Source: Calditrichaceae bacterium (lineage in GTDB: Bacteria; Calditrichota; Calditrichia; Calditrichales; JBFXGD01). Taken from it: DNA of 36,308 nt. Below the pieces are notes generated by a model that saw only the letters and a program-made list of their open reading frames with translations, ran no database searches and was not told the origin of the DNA. The position numbers and the translations under genes are program-made. Position 1 is the stretch's first letter; every line of letters starts with the position of its first letter. Shown one piece after another: positions 1 through 15,570 of this stretch. The stretch is from NCBI GenBank assembly GCA_050173015.1, contig JBFXLE010000032.1:1-36308 (forward strand), given 5' to 3'.

Positions 1-113
1 TGATTCAAATCAATTTATTTGAACGAAAACCGCTTGCGGAGATTTTCAAAGAACCAAAATATGAACCGCCAGACCACCAATTAAATAATCAAACCTGGTT
101 GTTCAATTTTTAA
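1..113 (+). CDS. C-terminal fragment of a probable IS4-family (DUF4372-type) transposase, truncated by the window edge
   Basis: Frame from nt 3 reads IQINLFERKPLAEIFKEPKYEPPDHQLNNQTWLFNF*, with TAA at 111-113. This resembles the 'NLFE(R/K)...NQLxLF' tail of these transposases and is directly followed by a typical terminal sequence. Not in the ORF track. Confidence 0.65.
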   Translation, partial: IQINLFERKPLAEIFKEPKYEPPDHQLNNQTWLFNF

Positions 114-126
114 CCGGACACTAATG
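110..126. mobile_element. Right terminal inverted repeat of an IS4-family element (TTAACCGGACACTAATG)
   Basis: Overlaps the transposase stop codon and resembles the 'TTAACCGGACACTAGTG' ends of this IS group. The left end is outside the window. Confidence 0.6.
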
Positions 127-184
127 AAATGCTTTAAAATTTTTTCAAAATGGAAAAATAATTTGACAATAGAATGGATTAGAG

Positions 185-226
185 AAAAAAAACCCGACTC
201 AAGGCCGGATGAGGCCAAGGCCGGGT
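185..226 (-). terminator. Rho-independent terminator of the tracrRNA
   Basis: ACCCGGCC-TT-GGCC-TCATCC-GGCC-TT-GAGTCGGG followed by TTTTTTTT on the minus strand. Confidence 0.85.
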
Positions 227-291
227 GAGGCTTTCGCCTGCGTGACTTAATCCTTATTGTAGATCGTCTCGCAAGATTGGGTTTGATTTGT
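185..291 (-). ncRNA. tracrRNA (~105 nt)
   Basis: Minus strand carries anti-repeat AAACCCAATCTTG-C-GAGAC-GAT-CTACAAT (284-256), which pairs with repeat nt 1-28 (7-bp lower stem, 3x3 loop, upper stem with 13 perfect bp). It is followed by an AAGG nexus start, an AGGC-GAAA-GCCT hairpin (239-228), and a GC-rich hairpin plus U8 (192-185). Confidence 0.92.
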
Positions 292-319
292 TGACATATT
301 ATAAATAAATAATTAATTT
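291..319 (+). promoter_or_regulatory. Putative cas9 promoter overlapping the divergent tracrRNA promoter
   Basis: TTGACA (291-296), 17 nt, TAATTT (314-319). The region is very AT-rich, so the -10 assignment is uncertain. Confidence 0.5.
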
Positions 320-326
320 AATGCAA
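298..326 (-). promoter_or_regulatory. Sigma70-type promoter of the tracrRNA
   Basis: Minus strand TTGCAT (326-321), 17 nt, TATAAT (303-298). The predicted TSS near 291 lies just upstream of the anti-repeat. Confidence 0.75.
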
Positions 327-426
327 GCTTTTTTATCGCCGTTAGCAATTATCCAAAACACTTTCAATCAATGTATGAAAAATTTTATACTACTTTAAAA
401 TATTTATATGCTTAAGGAGATAGCTC

Positions 427-3414
427 ATGGCAAATATTTTAGGTTTAGATCTTGGTGCTAATTCAATTGGGTGGGCTCTGATTAATGATACCGATTCAAG
501 AATTATCGCTACTGGAGTGAGGGTATTTCCGGAAGGGGTGGAAAGATCGGGTAACAAGAGTGAAGAATCTAGAAATGCTAAAAGACGCCAGGCCAGACTC
601 ATTCGCAGGAATCTTGCCAGAAAGCGCAGCCGCAGAGATTTTCTTATTAAAAAATTAAAAACTTATAAAATGTTCCCAAATGATAATTCGGAATTAGAAA
701 AATTCTTTAAAATGGATCCATATGAAATTAGAGAGAAAGCAATCATTCAAAAGATAAGTCTATTAGAGTTAGGGAGAGCTTTATATCATATAAATTTAAG
801 ACGGGGATTTTTATCAAACAGAAAGATGAACAATGATGAAAATAATAAGATATATAAAGGGAGTGAAGGTAAAATAGGCATAACAGAAACCCAGAGAGCC
901 ATTATTGACCATAATGCCTTAACCTTGGGCCAATATCTGGCCGGTTTAAACCCACACGAGGAAAGACGGAGAAACAGATATACTCTAAGAGATATGTATA
1001 ATAATGAATTTAATCAAATTTGGGAGAAACAGACTGAATTCTATAATGATTTTCTAACTGATGAAATGAAGACTGTATTGGAAAACGCTATATTCTTTCA
1101 ACGTAAAATGCGCTCACAAAAGCATCTTATAGGTACTTGTACATTCGAAAGAAGTAAAAAAACGACGCCGAAAAGTTCTCCTTTCTTTCAGTATTTCCGA
1201 ATTCTGGAACAAGTTAATAATTTGAGACTAACGGTAGGGAACCGTTTTAATGAGCCTCTAACAGAAGATGAACGTGTAAAATTAATAACAGAATTGAAAA
1301 TTAAAAAAGAAATTAAATTTACGGGAAAAAATAAATTAGCCACAATATTAGATTTGCCCGAAGATACAATTTTTAATCTTACAGCGCTTGGGAAACTAAT
1401 GGGCGATACGACAAGTGTAGCAATATCTAAAGTTTTCGGACAGCTAGAATGGGAGAAAAAAACAGATAGAGAAAAATTAGAAATTTGGCATGTAATTCAT
1501 TCTGCCAACGAGGATAAATGGCTAGAAAAATATGCCAAAAAGAAATGGAATTTAGATGATGATTCCATTAAAAAGCTATTAAAAGTATCGCTTGAAAAAG
1601 GATATGGAAGATTAAGCCGCAAGGCAATCGAAAAAATGATTCCGTTTTTGGAAAAAGGATTAACTTATGATGATGCGGCCAAAGAAGCTGGTTATCACCA
1701 TAGCAAGCTAATGAATCCAGATAGTCATAAAGAGCAGCTTCCTGAACCTGAAAATTTAAGAAATCCCATTGTACAACAGGCCTTATACCAGGTTCGAAAC
1801 GTAATAAATGCGATTATTGTAAAATATGGTAAACCGGATATAGTGCGTGTTGAACTAGCAAGAGAATTAAAACTTCCCAAAAAACGGCGAGAAGAGATAC
1901 ATAAAGAAAATGCGCAGCGAGAAAATAAAGCCTCTGAAATAAGAAAAATTCTGCAAAATGATATTGGGATTAAATATCCTTCCCGGGATGATATTCAAAA
2001 ATATCTGCTTTGGGAAGAATGTGATAAAACATGTCCATACACGGCAAAAAAAATTTCTCTTGCCGCGCTATTCAATGGTGATTTTGAAATTGAACATATT
2101 ATTCCTTATAGCAGGAGCCTTGATGACTCGCTCGCTAACAAGACTCTTTGCTTCAAATCGGAAAATTTAATAAAAAGCAACAAGACACCATATGAAGCAT
2201 ATGGGCATGACCAAGCGCGTTATCAGGAAATTGTTGACCGTGTTAAAAAATTTAATCATCGTGGAAAATTAAAAAAATTCTTGTTGCGTGATACAGAAAA
2301 AGTTTTAAAAGATGAATTCTTAAACAGGCATTTAAATGATACAGCATATATAAGCAGGTCCGTACATAATTACTTAAAAAAAGTATTTTTAAAAGTGCAG
2401 GTGGCAAAAGGTGGATCGACTGCCATTCTAAGAAAATTGTGGGGATTAAATTCAATATTATCCCAAGACGCGGATGTGAAAAATCGCTTTGACCATCGAC
2501 ATCATTCCGTTGATGCTCTTGTTGTAGCCTGTACTAACATTCGTGTTTTACAAATCCTCAGCACACATCATGCTTCTCATCGTCGATTTAATAGAGAAGT
2601 GTTTCCGGCTCCATGGAAGGATTTTAGACGGCAAGCGGGAGCAGCACTTAATGCTATCCTTGTTTCTCATAAATTTAGAAACCGCGTAAGAGGGTCTTTA
2701 CATAACGAAACATACTATGGTCGAATAAAGGATAATGATGGCAATTATGTTTTTGTAGTTAGAAAAAAACTTGAGCAGCTGACATCAAAAATGTTGCAAG
2801 ACATTGTGGATGAAAGATCGAAGGAAGCGATACATAGCAGGATAACAGATTTCGGTTTTGATCCCGCTACAGTCAAATCTTTCCCAAAAGAAGCATTGAA
2901 AACTCCAATTTTGCACCCTGTCACAGGTCTTCCCATCAAAAAAGTGCGGGTTAAAATACCATCTTGTACGATGCGGCAATTATATAAAGACCGCAATGTT
3001 TATGTGGAACCGGGTGGGAACCATCATATAGAAATATTTGAAAATCCGGAAACCGGGGTGAGAATTGGGAAAGTTGTTACACTATTTGATGCAGTCCAGC
3101 GAAAGAAACAAGGCCTCCCTATAATTAATAAAGAGAATGTTGATGGCTTTTATTTTAAACTGGATTTGGCAATTAATGAGATGATCTTGCTTAATGAGGA
3201 AGACAATGGTGATGGCAATAGCAAAGTTATTAGTGATCGCTTGTATCGGGTGCAAAAGATTTCACAGGGGGGCCCAAAAATTACCTTTAGGAAACATAAT
3301 TTAAGTTATTCCGGGGACGGCGATCCTGGTGTGTTACGTAGAACCCCATCAACTTTAATGGCATCTAAAGTGAGAATAGACATATTAGGGGAATTAGTGC
3401 AAGAAAATGATTAA
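427..3414 (+). CDS. cas9: Type II-C CRISPR endonuclease Cas9, compact (995 aa)
   Basis: RuvC-I ILGLDLGANSIGWA, Arg-rich bridge helix RNAKRRQARLIRRNLARKRSRR, RuvC-II VRVELARE, HNH CPYT...EIEHIIPYSRSLDDSLANK...N..K, RuvC-III DHRHHSVDALVVA. RBS AAGGAG upstream. Confidence 0.98.
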   Translation: MANILGLDLGANSIGWALINDTDSRIIATGVRVFPEGVERSGNKSEESRNAKRRQARLIRRNLARKRSRRDFLIKKLKTYKMFPNDNSELEKFFKMDPYEIREKAIIQKISLLELGRALYHINLRRGFLSNRKMNNDENNKIYKGSEGKIGITETQRAIIDHNALTLGQYLAGLNPHEERRRNRYTLRDMYNNEFNQIWEKQTEFYNDFLTDEMKTVLENAIFFQRKMRSQKHLIGTCTFERSKKTTPKSSPFFQYFRILEQVNNLRLTVGNRFNEPLTEDERVKLITELKIKKEIKFTGKNKLATILDLPEDTIFNLTALGKLMGDTTSVAISKVFGQLEWEKKTDREKLEIWHVIHSANEDKWLEKYAKKKWNLDDDSIKKLLKVSLEKGYGRLSRKAIEKMIPFLEKGLTYDDAAKEAGYHHSKLMNPDSHKEQLPEPENLRNPIVQQALYQVRNVINAIIVKYGKPDIVRVELARELKLPKKRREEIHKENAQRENKASEIRKILQNDIGIKYPSRDDIQKYLLWEECDKTCPYTAKKISLAALFNGDFEIEHIIPYSRSLDDSLANKTLCFKSENLIKSNKTPYEAYGHDQARYQEIVDRVKKFNHRGKLKKFLLRDTEKVLKDEFLNRHLNDTAYISRSVHNYLKKVFLKVQVAKGGSTAILRKLWGLNSILSQDADVKNRFDHRHHSVDALVVACTNIRVLQILSTHHASHRRFNREVFPAPWKDFRRQAGAALNAILVSHKFRNRVRGSLHNETYYGRIKDNDGNYVFVVRKKLEQLTSKMLQDIVDERSKEAIHSRITDFGFDPATVKSFPKEALKTPILHPVTGLPIKKVRVKIPSCTMRQLYKDRNVYVEPGGNHHIEIFENPETGVRIGKVVTLFDAVQRKKQGLPIINKENVDGFYFKLDLAINEMILLNEEDNGDGNSKVISDRLYRVQKISQGGPKITFRKHNLSYSGDGDPGVLRRTPSTLMASKVRIDILGELVQEND

Positions 3415-4294
3415 AAAAACACTTTATTTTGGCAATACAGCCGTACTCAGGATAAAAGACCGTCAACTTAGGATCATACGCCCGGAGCATGATGATGTAA
3501 CAGTACCATTGGAAGACATAGGGGTGATTATGTTAGATCATTATGGTATATCCGTTTCACATGGCGTTCTTTCCTCCTGCATGGAATATAAAATTGCCCT
3601 GATAAATACCAATGAGCGACATATGCCGGCGGGATTATTAATGCCACTTTCAGGAAACGTTGAACAGGGTGAACGGTTTATAGCGCAAACCGGTGTTGGG
3701 CAGGCGTTAAAGAACAATCTTTGGCAACAAATAATAAAAGCAAAAATTCGCAATCAGGCCGGAATATTAAAGCAGTTGAATCTCCCATACGAACCGTTAA
3801 TAAAAATGTCAAAGGAAGTGATGACCCGCGATCGCACGAATCGTGAATCATTGGCTGCTCGGTTCTATTGGGAGAACTTGTTTCATCCGAGTGAATTTCG
3901 GAGAAACAGAGAAGGAAAACCGCCAAACAATTTACTTAATTTTGGATATGCAATTTTACGCGCGGTGGTTGCACGTTCTCTTATAAGTACGGGATTATTA
4001 CCGACATTGGGAATTTTTCATCGTAACCGTTATAATGCATTCCCGTTAGCGGATGATATTATGGAGCCATTCCGTCCATTTGTGGATATAGTTGTGCGTG
4101 AATTGGCGGAAGAAGAATTAGAGTTGAGCAGGATCGATAATAATATCAGGAATCGATTGTTAGAGATACAGGCCATGCCTGTCTTAATGGAAAAAGAGGT
4201 TCGTCCCCTAATGTTGGCAGCTGATAGAACTTGTTCTTCACTAATGCAATGCTTTAAGGGATTAAGGAAGAAGTTGGTTTGTCCGGAAGTATGA
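3407..4294 (+). CDS. cas1: Type II CRISPR integrase Cas1
   Basis: VPLEDIG, LWQQIIKAKIRNQ, NRE..AAR.YW, NNLLNFGYAILR, GIFHRNRYNAFPLADDIMEPFRP. Overlaps the cas9 stop. Confidence 0.97.
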   Translation: MIKKTLYFGNTAVLRIKDRQLRIIRPEHDDVTVPLEDIGVIMLDHYGISVSHGVLSSCMEYKIALINTNERHMPAGLLMPLSGNVEQGERFIAQTGVGQALKNNLWQQIIKAKIRNQAGILKQLNLPYEPLIKMSKEVMTRDRTNRESLAARFYWENLFHPSEFRRNREGKPPNNLLNFGYAILRAVVARSLISTGLLPTLGIFHRNRYNAFPLADDIMEPFRPFVDIVVRELAEEELELSRIDNNIRNRLLEIQAMPVLMEKEVRPLMLAADRTCSSLMQCFKGLRKKLVCPEV

Positions 4295-4620
4295 GGTTAA
4301 ATCCATATCGAATTATGTGGTTACTCGTGTTTTTTGATTTGCCGGTCGTAAAAGACAAAGACCGGAAAGCGTATACAAAATTTCGCAAAAAATTGATGCA
4401 GGATGGATTTACGCAAATGCAATACTCCGTCTATTTGCGTCATTGTGCCAGTCGTGAGAACGCGGAAGTTCATATAAAAAGAGTAAAATCTTTCTTGCCT
4501 CCAAAAGGAGTAGTGAGCATCCTGCGGGTAACCGATAAACAATTTGGAATGATTGAATCATTTATAAGCAGAGAGCCGATAGATCCACCGGCATCCGGCC
4601 AGCAACTTGAATTGTTTTAA
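4291..4620 (+). CDS. cas2: CRISPR-associated Cas2 (ATG at 4291 preferred over TTG at 4279)
   Basis: MWLLVFFDLPV...YTKFRKKLMQDGFTQMQYSVYLR, VTDKQF, C-terminal QLELF. ATGA overlap with the cas1 stop. Confidence 0.97.
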   Translation: MRLNPYRIMWLLVFFDLPVVKDKDRKAYTKFRKKLMQDGFTQMQYSVYLRHCASRENAEVHIKRVKSFLPPKGVVSILRVTDKQFGMIESFISREPIDPPASGQQLELF

Positions 4621-4649
4621 AAAAACGCATAATATACCATATAAAAATA

Positions 4650-4681
4650 CAAAACGGAGCAAAATTTTTTGCTCCGTTTTG
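4650..4681. terminator. Bidirectional terminator between cas2 and the convergent CRISPR array
   Basis: Perfect inverted repeat CAAAACGGAGCAAAA-TT-TTTTGCTCCGTTTTG. Confidence 0.8.
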
Positions 4682-4721
4682 CAATTAAATGTCTGTATAT
4701 TAAAAGTTTATACAAACATAT

Positions 4722-6405
4722 AATTTAATAAACCCAATCTTGAAAACCTACTACAACCAAAACTCATAACCAACCTTATGCCTGCTCAATTTAATAAACC
4801 CAATCTTGAAAACCTACTACAACGGATTGCCGTCATCATACAATACCAGTACAATTTAATAAACCCAATCTTGAAAACCTACTACAACCCGCCGTTATCA
4901 ATAGCCCTACATACATCGAATTTAATAAACCCAATCTTGAAAACCTACTACAACTTGTACTTGTATGTTATGCCGGCTCTGTTCAATTTAATAAACCCAA
5001 TCTTGAAAACCTACTACAACTGACATTCATGAACGCGCTCGTTCACCGAGAATTTAATAAACCCAATCTTGAAAACCTACTACAACCGTTGCGGTCACGG
5101 TTCGACAAGTATTGTAATTTAATAAACCCAATCTTGAAAACCTACTACAACTGCGTGTAGGGCTGGCTCCTGAACAAGGCAAATTTAATAAACCCAATCT
5201 TGAAAACCTACTACAACCAGAATCGCTTTTATCTCACTTTGAATCGATAATTTAATAAACCCAATCTTGAAAACCTACTACAACCGGTCATTGTCGTTGG
5301 AATCATATTTTTGAATTTAATAAACCCAATCTTGAAAACCTACTACAACTCCAGCTGACAGTCATACCACCCCGGCGTAAATTTAATAAACCCAATCTTG
5401 AAAACCTACTACAACGTAACCGCGCTAGGACTCGCGTTCGCGAGCAATTTAATAAACCCAATCTTGAAAACCTACTACAACTTACACTGCCTGTTTATGA
5501 TGATTATTTTAATTTAATAAACCCAATCTTGAAAACCTACTACAACAGCCTGTGATCCCTGATCCCTGATCCCTGAAATTTAATAAACCCAATCTTGAAA
5601 ACCTACTACAACTAGCGAACCAGCCTCAGTTGCACCAGCAAAAATTTAATAAACCCAATCTTGAAAACCTACTACAACTAGTTTGCATTAATTCACCGTT
5701 ATTTAATCTAATTTAATAAACCCAATCTTGAAAACCTACTACAACAAATATCTTGAAATCGCGTTCGATCGATTTAATTTAATAAACCCAATCTTGAAAA
5801 CCTACTACAACCGTGGAGATGTTAGGATCTAACGACACCTCAATTTAATAAACCCAATCTTGAAAACCTACTACAACTTGTAGTCTTCCCAGAATCTTGT
5901 AAGAAGAAATTTAATAAACCCAATCTTGAAAACCTACTACAACGTTGAGGGCTTGATTCATAGCTCTCTCAATAATTTAGTAAACCCAATCTTGAAAACC
6001 TACTACAACCAATGCGGGCGTTGAAGATGGTTAGTGCCAAATTTAATAAACCCAATCTTGAAAACCTACTACAACCCGTCATCCGCGCTAATCGTCACCC
6101 GCGAAAATTTAATAAACCCAATCTTGAAAACCTACTACAACAAGTACAACATTCTTTTCCCGGTCGGTAACAATTTAATAAACCCAATCTTGAAAACCTA
6201 CTACAACTCCAGCGATGCGTTTATACGCCGTTCATTCAATTTAATAAACCCAATCTTGAAAACCTACTACAACGAGCAAGAAGAACAGAAGCCAGAAACA
6301 CAGAATTTAATAAACCCAATCTTGAAAACCTACTACAACCCGATCAGTTTGGGTTTATCGGAATTTCTCAATTTAATAAACCCAATCTTGAAAACCTACT
6401 ACAAT
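4722..6405 (-). CRISPR. CRISPR array, 26 repeats (36 nt) and 25 spacers (29-31 nt). Repeat as transcribed: GTTGTAGTAGGTTTTCAAGATTGGGTTTATTAAATT
   Basis: Plus-strand unit AATTTAATAAACCCAATCTTGAAAACCTACTACAAC counted 26 times. Variants are repeat 20 (A>G at 5980) and terminal repeat 26 (C>T at 6405). Orientation follows from complementarity to the tracrRNA. Confidence 0.98.
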
Positions 6406-6445
6406 AACTTTTCGTAGGTTAGATTGCAAAATTAAAATAATTCTC

Positions 6446-6474
6446 TTGACATGCGGAAACGTATGCTTTATACT
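6446..6474 (+). promoter_or_regulatory. Sigma70 promoter of the 14-gene operon
   Basis: TTGACA (6446-6451), 17 nt, TATACT (6469-6474); TSS near 6481. Confidence 0.8.
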
Positions 6475-6482
6475 TAACTTCA

Positions 6483-6512
6483 GTTGTACGGACAACCACA
6501 CAACCGTACAAC
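6483..6512. promoter_or_regulatory. Putative GntR/HutC-type operator plus a second half-site
   Basis: Palindrome GTTGT-ACGG-ACAAC (6483-6496) directly after the TSS. CCGTACAAC (6504-6512) is the exact reverse complement of GTTGTACGG (6483-6491). Confidence 0.65.
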
Positions 6513-6534
6513 CGGAAATTATCTGGAGAATGAC

Positions 6535-7929
6535 ATGAAATTTAATCGAACGGGACTCGTATTAACTGCCATTTTTTTTCTCCCCGCTCTCTTGTTTTGC
6601 TCAAAACCCCCGCTTATTTCCGGGGATACCCTCACTATTGGATTGATTGGTGATCAGACCGGGTCATATGACCTTTCCGCGACTTATCAAATAATGGAAA
6701 AGGCGGTCGAACAGATGGATGCTAAAAATCCCGATCTCGTGCTGCATGTGGGTGATCTGGTTGAAAGCATCAGGGGAATCAACTCATTTGAAGATTATAA
6801 ATCGAATTTTGACCATGCGGTAAAAATACTAAACCGTCTGAACGCGCCCTGGTATCTCACCGCCGGTGATCATGATGTGGTACCTCCGGTTTATCAGGCC
6901 GGATCAGGCGACCGGTCAAGGGAAGAATGGTTCAAAAAACTGTGTTCAGCCGCCGGTTTACCCATAAAGAATCAATTATATTATAGTTTTGACTTCAATA
7001 ATTATCATTTTATCTCTCTTTACTCTCTTGAAAATTTGCATACTGATCCCAGATGGGGTCCCATTTTTTTGAATCAGTTGTCTGAGGAGCAAATCGCATG
7101 GCTGAGAAATGATCTGGAAGCGCGAAAGAGCGCGCGGGGGATCATAGTCCTTGTGCATCAGCCTCACTGGTATGTCTGGTCGAACTGGTCGGAAATTCAT
7201 GAAATACTCAGGCAATATCCAGTCGCGGCAGTCATTGCCGGACATTTTCATTATGACCAGGATGACGGCCTGATCGATCAGATAAGATACCTGGTGATGG
7301 GCGCTACCGGAGGTGTCGTTAAAAATATGGATCCCAATTCCGGCGGCTCATCTCAATTCGCTACCCTTAAGCTGTATAAGAACAAGGTCACTGATATAAA
7401 ATTATTTGATCTTTCATCGGGAGAATCCCTCGAGCTGACGCCGCGCAAGACCATGGACCGTCTGCAGGCGCTCTCCTGTATGCTAGATAATGTTTTTATG
7501 GATGAAAATATTGGCCATAAGAGTGGACAGCTCTACTCCATTACGGACGAAAATCAACACAGTCCGTTAAAACAGATCGGGCTTGAATCACTCGCGAATC
7601 CGATCGATTTACCGATTCGAATTGAAATAAACGCGGATCGGGATATTCTTCAAAACGCGCGTTGGATCCGTTCAGGAAAGTCTCTGCCGGGTTCGTCTGT
7701 CATGGAATTGATGCCCGGTGAAAGAACCGGCTGGGCGAATTATACCAGTGTGGGGCAATGGGTAAAACCGGATCCTTTGTGGGTTTGCGATCTTACAGAT
7801 AATCCGGAAAGATTGAAGAATTTGACCAGTATCGCGGTAAAGATAAAAATATCATTTAGTGATCGGGGTGAGCGCTGGGTTGAATCAACCGCCCGCTTTC
7901 CCGTAAAAAAAATCGAAGATAATTTATGA
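6535..7929 (+). CDS. Calcineurin-like metallophosphoesterase, probable lipoprotein, with an unknown C-terminal domain
   Basis: ATG 6535 after GGAG. Signal MKFNRTGLVLTAIFFLPALLFC (lipobox-like Cys). Motifs IGDQ, HVGDLV, GDHD, VHQP, AGHFH. Confidence 0.85.
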   Translation: MKFNRTGLVLTAIFFLPALLFCSKPPLISGDTLTIGLIGDQTGSYDLSATYQIMEKAVEQMDAKNPDLVLHVGDLVESIRGINSFEDYKSNFDHAVKILNRLNAPWYLTAGDHDVVPPVYQAGSGDRSREEWFKKLCSAAGLPIKNQLYYSFDFNNYHFISLYSLENLHTDPRWGPIFLNQLSEEQIAWLRNDLEARKSARGIIVLVHQPHWYVWSNWSEIHEILRQYPVAAVIAGHFHYDQDDGLIDQIRYLVMGATGGVVKNMDPNSGGSSQFATLKLYKNKVTDIKLFDLSSGESLELTPRKTMDRLQALSCMLDNVFMDENIGHKSGQLYSITDENQHSPLKQIGLESLANPIDLPIRIEINADRDILQNARWIRSGKSLPGSSVMELMPGERTGWANYTSVGQWVKPDPLWVCDLTDNPERLKNLTSIAVKIKISFSDRGERWVESTARFPVKKIEDNL

Positions 7930-7959
7930 CCGGGTTTTAATTTATTCAGGATAGGTTCA

Positions 7960-8736
7960 ATGGTAACACATGTAACGGAAATTGAAAAATCAAGCGTAGT
8001 ACCGATTTATCATCAGTTGTATTCCATTCTTCTCGACTTAATACATAGTGAAGTTTATAAGCCTTATGACCGGCTTCCCTCGGAAAATGAACTTACCGCG
8101 CAGTATCAAATAAGCAGACAAACGGCTCAAAAGGCTTTAAATGCCCTTGTGGAACAGGGAATTGCCCACAGAGTACAGGGGAAAGGCACTTTTGTAAGCG
8201 ACAAGACAATCACTTACAGCATCACTGCCTCTTTGAGTTATTCCACGGAAATAATCGGATTAAATAAAGTTCCCCGAAGCGAGTTAATTCACGCAAAAGA
8301 AATAGAAACTTCGGGTCTTATCTCAAGGAACCTCGCGCTGGATGAAGGTGCTTCCGTTTACAGCGTGCAGAGGGTCCGATATGTGGATGATATTCCGATG
8401 ACGTTGCAAACTTCATATCTGCCAAAATATCTTGTACCCGGACTGATCGATAAAAAATTTGAAGAAGGGTCATTGTTTAAAACAATCCGCAAAGAATATC
8501 AGCTTGAAATCGGCCATGCCACGGAGTACCTGAAATCAGTAAAATGTGATCAATATGAAGCAAAGCTGCTCGGTATTAAAGAAGGAGACGCCGTTCTGCT
8601 CCTTGAGAGAATTACGCGATTAAAAGACGGCAGAATTCTTGAATTTGTGCGCTCCGTTCTGCGGGGCGATAAAAGTAAAATATCAATAGATCTGGCAACA
8701 TACGAAAACGGGGAGAGGAAAACTATTGGAAGATAA
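7960..8736 (+). CDS. GntR-family (HutC/UTRA) transcriptional regulator
   Basis: PIYHQL...RLPSENEL...ISRQTAQKAL...QGKGTFV wHTH, with a C-terminal UTRA domain (RVRYVDDIP, SLF, LERIT, EFVRSVLRGD). Confidence 0.95.
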   Translation: MVTHVTEIEKSSVVPIYHQLYSILLDLIHSEVYKPYDRLPSENELTAQYQISRQTAQKALNALVEQGIAHRVQGKGTFVSDKTITYSITASLSYSTEIIGLNKVPRSELIHAKEIETSGLISRNLALDEGASVYSVQRVRYVDDIPMTLQTSYLPKYLVPGLIDKKFEEGSLFKTIRKEYQLEIGHATEYLKSVKCDQYEAKLLGIKEGDAVLLLERITRLKDGRILEFVRSVLRGDKSKISIDLATYENGERKTIGR

Positions 8737-13680: not shown

Positions 13681-15570
13681 ATGTCCATTTTTAATCATTT
13701 TCGAGTTTATGTCATTGTTTTATTTTTAATCGTACTTGTATCCCAGACATGGGGAAGTGATGACTCGACAAAAGTAAAACAGGATAGAATGGCGGAACGG
13801 GTGATACTTACCGCAGAAGATTTTAAGAAATTAAATTGTGAAAATGTCGGTGACGCGTTGAGTAATCTTTCGGGAGTCACCGTGAGTTCTCTCGGTGAAG
13901 TCTCTTTACGGGATGTGAGTTCTTCAAAAGTAGTCATTATATTTGACGGACAAAAATTAAATACGGCAGGCGGAACCGGCGTAAGGGTCAATTCGATTTC
14001 CATAGAAAATATAGAAAAAGTTGAGCTCCTTCGAGGCGGCCGGTCAGCCCAATACGGCGCCGATGCCGTCGGCGGTGTGATCCGTATTACCTCTAAATCA
14101 CAGACATCACAGGAAGCTCTGTGGAATATAGGCGCGAGAGCCGGGTACGGTTCATATAATAATCAGATATATGGATTAAATCATTCTCTTTCTTCAGGCG
14201 TTTTTGATTATTTTGTCTCCTATAAGCGCGAAACATGGGATGGCGACTTTGAGTATACGGATAACGCGGGTGAGAGAACCAATCTGGAAAATAATGAGCA
14301 GGATTCTCATTTTCTGTTCCTTAAATCCGGTTATAAGCTGGATGATCTCCAGAATATCAACGCGTCATTCAGTTATTACAAAGCGGACAACGGCACACCG
14401 GGTATGATTGACAATCAGACTCCCAACGCGCGTATCCGATTTGATAACAAATCCTACAATCTCAACTATGACAACAAAGCCCTTTTTAAAGAATTCTCTA
14501 TGAAAATGCAGGGATATTTTCTGGACAACGAGACAAAATTTGACGATCCGGACGGTCTCGTGCCGGTTCACAGTGATCATGACAATTATGCTCTGGGAAT
14601 GGATCTGCAGCAGGCGGGAAACCTTTCGAAACTGCTGAGTGTCTCCTACGGTTATTCATATCGAAACGACCGTATTGAAAGCACGGATATCGAAAAAAAG
14701 GAGAGAAACACACACAGCGGGTTTTCGACACTCACGATGGCAAAGGACGTGAATAAATTGATCTCACGCTGGGATGTTGCTCTGGCGGTGAGATATGACG
14801 CTCCTTCAGATTTTGACCCCGAATTCAGTCCGCGTCTCAGTGTCGGAGTCTCAAGCAATAATGACGTGGTAAACACATCTTTGCAGACTCATATCACCCG
14901 TTCCTACCGCGCGCCGACGTTTAATGATCTATATTGGCCCCGTGATGCTTTCGCGATTGGAAATCCTGATTTAAAACCCGAAATAGGGTTCAATTATGAT
15001 GTCGGACTTAATCTGTCAAAATCGCTCGAATCGGTCAATCTTTCCGGATCGGTAAACTACTTTGTCAATGAGGTAACCGATCTAATCCTATGGGCTCAGG
15101 ACCCGGCTTTAAACAATTTATGGACTCCGAAAAATATTTCTGAAACATCGACTAAGGGCATTGAATTATCAAGTACGATTGATCTGTTTGAGAGCAAAGT
15201 CGTATTGAATTCAGAATACACCTATATGAAAGCGCTGGATAAGGGGCCTGATCCTAACAGGCATAATAAGTATATTATTTATAAACCCAAAAATAAGTTA
15301 GATCTTACCGGAACGTTCAGGCTTTATGATTTTGAATGGAATATCATGTATCATTATTATGGTTTAAGATACACTAATCCTGCCAATACGCTATGGCTCG
15401 ATGCGGTGAGTCTGATAGATTCCAATGTGACATATAAGTTCGACATTAATAGATATAAGGCAAATGTCACATTTGAAGTGAGCAATCTTACTGATGAAGA
15501 CTATCAGCGGGTTCGTAATACCGCTGAACCCGGAAGAATGTTTAAGGTGTCATTTGGAGTAGATATCTAG
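13681..15570 (+). CDS. TonB-dependent receptor, BtuB-like
   Basis: Signal peptide, plug motif IEKVELLRGGRSAQYGADAVGGVI, YRAPTFNDLYW, GNPDLKPE, C-terminal NLTDEDY...PGRMF. Confidence 0.92.
   Translation: MSIFNHFRVYVIVLFLIVLVSQTWGSDDSTKVKQDRMAERVILTAEDFKKLNCENVGDALSNLSGVTVSSLGEVSLRDVSSSKVVIIFDGQKLNTAGGTGVRVNSISIENIEKVELLRGGRSAQYGADAVGGVIRITSKSQTSQEALWNIGARAGYGSYNNQIYGLNHSLSSGVFDYFVSYKRETWDGDFEYTDNAGERTNLENNEQDSHFLFLKSGYKLDDLQNINASFSYYKADNGTPGMIDNQTPNARIRFDNKSYNLNYDNKALFKEFSMKMQGYFLDNETKFDDPDGLVPVHSDHDNYALGMDLQQAGNLSKLLSVSYGYSYRNDRIESTDIEKKERNTHSGFSTLTMAKDVNKLISRWDVALAVRYDAPSDFDPEFSPRLSVGVSSNNDVVNTSLQTHITRSYRAPTFNDLYWPRDAFAIGNPDLKPEIGFNYDVGLNLSKSLESVNLSGSVNYFVNEVTDLILWAQDPALNNLWTPKNISETSTKGIELSSTIDLFESKVVLNSEYTYMKALDKGPDPNRHNKYIIYKPKNKLDLTGTFRLYDFEWNIMYHYYGLRYTNPANTLWLDAVSLIDSNVTYKFDINRYKANVTFEVSNLTDEDYQRVRNTAEPGRMFKVSFGVDI

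Follow-up and report, generated by a model that had tools for sequence, protein, structure and literature searches.

Guide-less CRISPR RNAs that arise from the extra repeat of an array, known as extraneous crRNAs, compete for Cas9, and the means of avoiding them have been worked out for type II-A and type VI-B systems. In the II-A hairpin (Liao et al. 2022, as reported in the available parts of PMC12080349 and PMC13187072), a stretch immediately upstream of the repeat that is transcribed first base-pairs with it and keeps the trans-activating crRNA (tracrRNA) away. The repeat concerned is the newest of the II-A array and lies beside a transcribed, promoter-bearing leader, and the hairpin also aids maturation of the newest crRNA. 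A leader-repeat hairpin has likewise been described for VI-B Cas13b arrays, where, according to the accessible sections of PMC13187072, the first repeat takes part in a cis structure that prevents the production of a guide-less crRNA, which would otherwise titrate the nuclease. For type II-C, the accessible sections of PMC12080349 (Feussner et al. 2025) cover an analysis of more than 650 systems and propose three counter-measures against extraneous crRNA, namely an upstream terminator, a helix between the guide and upstream sequence, and mutations of the extra repeat; 71 of 260 systems, about a quarter, have no assigned mechanism there. The locus described here lies at the start of a 36,308-nucleotide (nt) stretch of DNA from a Calditrichaceae bacterium (assembly GCA_050173015.1, contig JBFXLE010000032.1; the whole stretch is referred to as the window). 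It is a complete type II-C CRISPR-Cas locus, and its extra repeat is flanked on one side by the cassette trailer and on the other by the oldest spacer, both of which carry segments complementary to it.

The CRISPR array (4722–6405, minus strand) is made up of 26 repeats of 36 nt and 25 spacers of 29–31 nt. The strand of the tracrRNA gene indicates that the crRNA sense is the minus strand, on which the consensus repeat reads GTTGTAGTAGGTTTTCAAGATTGGGTTTATTAAATT. In II-C arrays, new spacers enter at the transcription-downstream repeat, so that the repeat transcribed first is also the oldest, and is the "extra" repeat (available parts of PMC12080349 and PMC12477760). This polarity upholds the claim of the initial annotation that the cas-distal repeat (6370–6405, minus strand; its repeat 26) is both first transcribed and oldest. 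Only two variants occur among the 26 repeats: the extra repeat has A in place of G at position 1 (6405), and the seventh repeat (6009–5974) has C in place of T at position 30 (5980). The extra repeat of C. jejuni NCTC 11168 has the same A-for-G start, which is without effect there (PMC12080349, in the part available).

Complementarity to the extra repeat is found immediately on either side of it. The 28-nt trailer (6406–6433, minus strand) contains CAATCT followed by AACCTAC at 6426–6414, and this segment, CAATCTAACCTAC, is the reverse complement of AGATTG (repeat positions 18–23) and GTAGGTT (positions 7–13) with the intervening TTCA bulged. The predicted helix, stem (a), has 13 base pairs (bp) and a free energy of −13.3 kcal/mol (RNAfold); it joins the first transcribed repeat to the sequence directly upstream and engages 13 of the 28 trailer nucleotides. 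On the other side, the oldest spacer (6340–6369, minus strand; spacer 25 of the initial annotation) has the sequence GAGAAATTCCGATAAACCCAAACTGATCGG. Within it, ATAAACCCAA (6358–6349) is the exact complement of repeat positions 21–30, and AATT (6365–6362) pairs with repeat positions 33–36 around a GAGA loop (6369–6366), giving stem (b) at −14.3 kcal/mol. Both stems agree in position and pairing with those that had first been noted by inspection of the sequence.

The footprints of the two stems on the repeat barely overlap, and joint folds in which both coexist were obtained at −22.1 and −24.7 kcal/mol. It had been suggested that the stems compete only over UUG; coexistence is correct, but part of the CAAUCU/AGAUUG half of stem (a) is also displaced, and the competition is wider than was claimed. 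Comparison of a 141-nt fold with shuffles, a check along the lines proposed in the initial annotation, gave z = −3.17 with 1 of 200 shuffles equal, although in that fold the trailer pairs with the second repeat instead and encloses the first-repeat hairpin. Like a tracrRNA anti-repeat, each flanking segment is an inverted and imperfect version of the repeat. The version in the spacer spans repeat positions 21–36, whereas the tracrRNA pairs with positions 1–28, and the real tracrRNA lies at approximately 291–185. A role of the flanking segments as tracrRNA or pseudo-tracrRNA was considered and ruled out, as both are followed by array sequence rather than by hairpins and a terminator.

The effect of the two stems on the repeat was expressed as an opening cost, the free energy needed to make the tracrRNA-binding part of a repeat single-stranded in its native context. 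For repeat positions 1–28, this cost is 19.3 kcal/mol at the extra repeat, the highest of the 26, compared with 9.5 ± 2.9 kcal/mol (maximum 16.6) at the others. For the 13-nt core alone, the cost is 10.4 (10.39) kcal/mol compared with 4.7 ± 2.2 kcal/mol, with one internal repeat reaching 10.07. When random genomic sequence was used as flank and spacer, 2 of 700 contexts reached 19.3 kcal/mol and 16 of 700 reached the core value. The cost builds up almost exactly additively, from a baseline of 8.6 to 13.4 with the spacer alone, 14.75 with the flank alone and 19.3 kcal/mol with both, and when the oldest spacer is exchanged in turn for the other 24 beside the native flank, the cost does not exceed 17.07 kcal/mol. 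The computation bears out the expectation that the extra repeat is the least accessible of the 26 to the tracrRNA, with the two stems contributing additively. What the sequence and the computation show is that both neighbors of the extra repeat carry complements of it, that this repeat is a thermodynamic outlier and that its two sides act additively.

These properties suggest a mechanism. If a polymerase enters the array from the flank, the transcript would fold into two adjacent hairpins that sequester the would-be guide of the extraneous crRNA together with repeat positions 7–36, among which lies most of the tracrRNA-pairing surface. The extra repeat would then become by far the poorest tracrRNA partner, and both the production of extraneous crRNA and its loading into Cas9 would fall. 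With an opening cost of 19.3 kcal/mol, the extra repeat stands about 10 kcal/mol behind the average repeat, which would make it the last to be occupied if tracrRNA is limiting. In function, this would be the same solution as the leader-repeat hairpin of types II-A and VI-B, moved to the trailer end of a II-C array, where the oldest spacer would add a second clamp. In contrast to type II-A, the repeat is the oldest of a II-C array, transcription of the flank is presumed, and a second stem is contributed by a spacer. The VI-B case differs in having another effector and no tracrRNA, in acting by disruption of the repeat's own hairpin and in being confined to the leader side (PMC13187072, in the sections accessible).

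A cis-acting mask on the extra repeat against extraneous crRNA is considered the single most likely explanation for the locus, although it is put forward tentatively. It is preferred because the joint occlusion is an outlier, the two sides are additive, no published counter-measure is evident, the repeat complement takes up 13 of the trailer's 28 nt, a candidate promoter faces the array, and the unit containing the oldest spacer is retained in the contigs of sequencing run X1. In those contigs, the cas2-side flank, the far flank and the unit 6309–6399, which comprises the oldest spacer and parts of both adjoining repeats, are all identical to the window, and none of the other 24 spacers is covered. 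A more ambitious proposal, which is regarded as doubtful, is that the two-sided clamp represents a fourth II-C counter-measure in which the trailer and the first-acquired spacer each supply half of an anti-repeat; the spacer would have been turned, by selection or by template switching, from a memory into a cis-regulatory RNA element, with its own crRNA disabled as well. If the mask is real, the locus would provide a II-C example of repeat masking and the first case of a spacer serving as a structural element, which would matter for how array ends evolve and for designing compact II-C arrays. Otherwise, the locus shows how far a structural coincidence at a single locus can reach.

The candidate promoter directed into the array was identified by eye and is of the sigma-70 type, with TTGTCC (6495–6490) and TATAAA (6472–6467) separated by 17 nt on the minus strand. 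It is missing from the promoter scan because the scan demands a T at the last position of the −10 element. Sites of this type are plausible at the locus, judging from the tracrRNA promoter (TTGCAT at 326–321, 17 nt, TATAAT at 303–298, minus strand, upstream of cas9). The hexamers of the candidate promoter also occur in the same-genus genome G001, which is not independent evidence because they overlap the plus-strand promoter and the 5' untranslated region (UTR) of the neighboring gene. That gene, which encodes a calcineurin-like phosphoesterase (6535–7929, plus strand; open reading frame (ORF) and Pfam), is divergent from the array, and its promoter-like sequence, TTGACA-17-TATACT at 6446–6474 on the plus strand, was found in the scan with 11 of 12 matches and is conserved in G001.

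None of the three published II-C counter-measures is clearly present at the locus. A simple pattern scan of the minus strand from 6406 to 6650 revealed nothing terminator-like upstream of the array. The extra repeat carries one mutation, and its duplex with the tracrRNA (−31.0 kcal/mol) is hardly different from that of the consensus repeat (−31.3 kcal/mol), while the threshold given in the available part of PMC12080349 is at least 2 mutations that weaken tracrRNA pairing. In a 121-nt fold, the extraneous guide forms no more than a weak helix with sequence further upstream (7 bp, A-U/G-U) and pairs mainly with the repeat. The published II-C strategies (PMC12080349, as far as available) share with this locus the problem to be solved, the position of the extra repeat, the array polarity and the tying of the guide into a helix. 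The difference is that in the published helices the guide pairs with sequence further upstream, whereas here it pairs with the repeat itself.

Several points weigh against a mask. Transcription of the flank (6406–6460), selection on the structure and an effect on extraneous crRNA or Cas9 loading are all steps that we infer. The duplex between the extra repeat and the tracrRNA, at −31.0 kcal/mol, exceeds the energy of both hairpins together (−22 kcal/mol) as well as the opening cost. Consequently, the earlier proposal that the first repeat is hidden from the tracrRNA holds as reduced accessibility and fails as a full block. Transcription is a further difficulty, as the gene upstream is divergent and there can be no read-through from a gene. 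In the II-C model given in the available parts of PMC12080349 and PMC12477760, each repeat contains a promoter, and the first repeat is untranscribed unless there is a promoter outside the array. The repeat at this locus ends in TAAATT, with no −35 element or TG extension evident. In the repeats of Neisseria and Campylobacter, a −10 box is found at the repeat end, where TAAATT stands here. With promoters embedded in the repeats, the first repeat would serve as a promoter only, and the complement carried by the oldest spacer would pair with the next repeat within its own crRNA. The self-structure of the oldest crRNA is the strongest of the 25 (−13.8 versus −7.6 ± 2.1 kcal/mol), and the opening cost of its core is 7.8 compared with 2.7 ± 1.3 kcal/mol. 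The effect under this model would be a weaker oldest crRNA and not a block on extraneous crRNA.

Literature, statistics and comparative data add to these objections. A flank-extra repeat hairpin is not known to have been described for type II-C: the available part of PMC12080349, citing Liao 2022, states that none of the II-A kind was identified in II-C systems. A literature search that left most subscription-journal papers outside its reach found no second stem borne by a spacer and no two-sided mask. For a feature that a reader looking for oddities singled out by eye in a very large scan, P values of 0.003 to 0.02 are modest, and this selection keeps them from being decisive. In run X2, which represents a related strain, a 95.7-kb contig has position 4721 joined to 6370, giving a single repeat with no spacer. 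Neither run X1 nor run X2 has differences listed for 6370–6457. The contigs of both runs agree with a polarity in which the oldest repeat is at the far end, and the pattern fits spacer turnover on the cas2 side and collapse of the array.

Comparison with other II-C arrays did not reveal a counterpart. The best Cas1 matches among genome and metagenome contigs are 51% (L031) and 54% (L111) identical, and the arrays of these two loci, which have related 36-nt repeats, end at contig ends. Arrays with repeat sizes of 31 to 48 nt were detected in two sets of 80 loci, one from genomes and one from metagenomes. The genome set provided 28 arrays of at least 6 repeats with the cas-distal end inside the locus; the metagenome set provided 45 arrays, of which 15 are cut at the distal end and 28 were analyzed. 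None of the resulting 56 arrays, which are distant from that of the window and some of which are near-duplicates of each other, shows the feature. The first repeat never ranked highest against up to 14 sampled internal repeats per array (approximately 2.6 such cases are expected per set), and its opening cost was at most 10.3 kcal/mol in the genome set and 11.6 kcal/mol in the metagenome set, with mean z-scores of −0.78 and −0.36. No first spacer in these arrays has an exact complement of more than 7 nt. A general II-C property was rejected on these grounds, and the feature is an outlier and not a family trait because it occurs in 0 of 56 arrays. This cuts both ways, as the feature is unusual and yet has no comparative support.

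Taken together, the non-adaptive readings of the locus are about as likely as a mask, or slightly more likely. The foremost of these, to which an appreciable minority of the probability is given, is coincidence combined with ascertainment: the oldest spacer would be an ordinary memory with a chance 10-nt complement to the repeat, the likeness of the trailer would also be due to chance, and neither would be functional. Each side alone is only modestly unusual. A 10-nt exact complement arose in 6 of 5000 shuffles of the oldest spacer, and in duplex energy with the repeat this spacer is second of the 25, in the 3–5% tail, behind another spacer that pairs more strongly (−18.2 versus −15.4 kcal/mol). 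The flank duplex falls in the 4% tail of 5242 40-mers from the window, and when aligned to the inverted repeat, the spacer and the flank score P = 0.0035 and P = 0.022, respectively, against approximately 20,000 sampled genomic segments per length. The internal repeat with nearly the same core opening cost (10.07 versus 10.39 kcal/mol), the spacer length of exactly 30 nt, the selection of the feature from a very large scan and its absence from the 56 other arrays are all as expected of coincidence. What chance accounts for poorly is the combination: joint occlusion of this size in just 2 of 700 random contexts, two complements that fall on the same repeat from opposite sides with nearly disjoint footprints and in hairpin register, and a spacer stem that closes on a 4-nt loop right at the repeat end.

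Two other readings concern the origin of the complements. Foreign DNA that resembles the repeat (for example, from a related array, from a tracrRNA gene or from a mimic of the repeat on a phage) may have been taken up as the oldest spacer and inserted inverted, with the pairing a by-product and the trailer match due to chance. This is considered unlikely, although the alignment looks more like a diverged copy than a random match: the reverse complement of the spacer is collinear with the last ~24 nt of the repeat (TCA, TTGGGTTTAT, AATT), with ~18 matches and two small indels. Related repeats that share CAAGATTGGGTTT...TTAAATT do occur in other organisms (L111), and the exact spacer length is also consistent with capture. 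Against this, searches of phage records, of viral contigs, of the genome of the organism itself and of 38 genomes from its order did not turn up a source; the spacer is nearer to the repeat of its own array (10-nt core) than to its own tracrRNA (8 nt); and both the hairpin register and the trailer complement would be left unexplained. An improbable last reading is a relic at the DNA level, produced by template switching at a quasi-palindrome or by an old inverted duplication of the terminal repeat, which would be neutral or have a role in DNA only, such as marking the cassette end or interacting with an integrase. In a manual alignment, the trailer can pass for an inverted copy of the whole repeat that has degenerated (~23 of 36 positions match, two indels); it lies at the cassette boundary, and both inverted copies are in near-palindromic register with the repeat. 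The arms, however, are off register by one base, two separate events would be required, nothing comparable was seen in the 56 arrays, and the arms are far more diverged than are the flanks between strains, for which runs X1 and X2 list no differences.

The limits of the trailer were established from G001, which has no CRISPR at the corresponding site. G001 and the window are homologous (85% identity) from 6434 onward, a short way upstream of the promoter that serves the divergent phosphoesterase gene, and therefore 6406–6433 is the 28-nt trailer of an inserted cassette. The other neighbor of the site in G001, a 461-amino acid (aa) gene, is found here at the start of contig C22. The possibility that the trailer complement pre-existed in G001 was also considered, as an 8-nt GTAGGTTA occurs ~60 nt from the boundary, but was set aside because homology of this segment is unsupported by local alignment.

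The initial annotation had proposed that spacer 25 is not a memory. This view is not supported, as the spacer is exactly 30 nt long and lies between intact repeats, as an integrated spacer would. Searches for its origin returned no match in viral contigs for an exact 26-mer or an exact 21-mer of it, none in 38 further genomes from the order when up to 3 mismatches were allowed, and none longer than 18 nt in the organism's own genome. The whole array gave only chance-level matches (E ≥ 0.1) against phage records. The phage search that had been suggested for spacer 25 therefore yielded no protospacer, as the structural proposal would have it, but this result carries little weight; the blank is uninformative because the three newest spacers also have no match in viral contigs. 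One of the other spacers (5576–5547, minus strand), TCAGGGATCAGGGATCAGGGATCACAGGCT, is of low complexity and contains three tandem GGGATCA units, which is unusual for a protospacer.

None of 60 related genomes has an array of this repeat; in six of them, there are single chance matches with 2 mismatches. The repeats of two uncultured lineages, L031 (a Chitinophagales metagenome-assembled genome) and L111 (a metagenome contig), share a GTTGT start and a GGTTT..T(A/T)AAATT end with the repeat described here, and that of L111 also shares CAAGATTGGGTTT. All other Cas1 relatives found have repeats of 46–47 nt, or shorter or cut forms. These two loci and the present one may form a small 36-nt II-C sub-lineage in the Bacteroidota/Ignavibacteria group.

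The remainder of the locus is consistent with the II-C type and the minus-strand reading proposed from inspection, which are confirmed by the cas gene set (ORFs and Pfam), the strand of the tracrRNA and the repeat fold. The plus strand encodes Cas9 (427–3414, 995 aa; Pfam RuvC_III, HNH_4 and Cas9_a), Cas1 (3407–4294, 295 aa; Cas_Cas1) and Cas2 (4279–4620, 113 aa; CRISPR_Cas2). No csn2 or cas4 accompanies these genes; cas2 is directly followed by a terminator and the array, with neither gene in between. The reading direction of the array is opposite to that of the cas genes, and the variant oldest repeat stands at its cas-distal, transcription-upstream end, as in other II-C systems. At 4648–4683, 38 nt past the last repeat, a pattern scan identified a terminator-like hairpin of 16 pairs with a U tract on the minus strand, which would stop array transcripts ahead of cas2.

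The tracrRNA gene (185–291, minus strand; its ends are approximated from the sequence) is the sole repeat-complementary stretch outside the array. Its anti-repeat is made up of AAACCCAATCTTG (284–272, a 13-nt exact core) and CTACAAT (262–256), and it is followed by hairpins and a U-run terminator (192–185), such that all of the elements expected of a II-C tracrRNA are present. In the duplex with the consensus repeat (−31.3 kcal/mol), repeat positions 1–7 and 11–28 are paired. A search of positions 1–8000 against Rfam returned no family above threshold.

A few further observations concern the surroundings of the locus. The 5' UTR region of the phosphoesterase gene contains, at 6484–6513, a 9-bp inverted repeat, GTTGTACGG...CCGTACAAC, that is partly kept in G001; it holds three GTTGT motifs that resemble the repeat start, probably by coincidence. 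In the host genome, SusD is absent, and the type IX secretion system (T9SS) sorting domain (Por_Secre_tail) has 53 matches. The window shares its first 127 nt exactly with the end of contig C31, as contig C22 does with the end of contig C36; ~80%-identical versions of both 127-nt ends are found ~640 nt apart on contig C6 (~14897–15539), as a diverged full copy. The minus strand of the window and the reverse complement of C22 also have a segment of ~25 nt in common, in opposite orientation. The pattern looks like a small repeated mobile element inserted between the tracrRNA and the 461-aa neighboring gene, and this element is probably the cause of the contig break.

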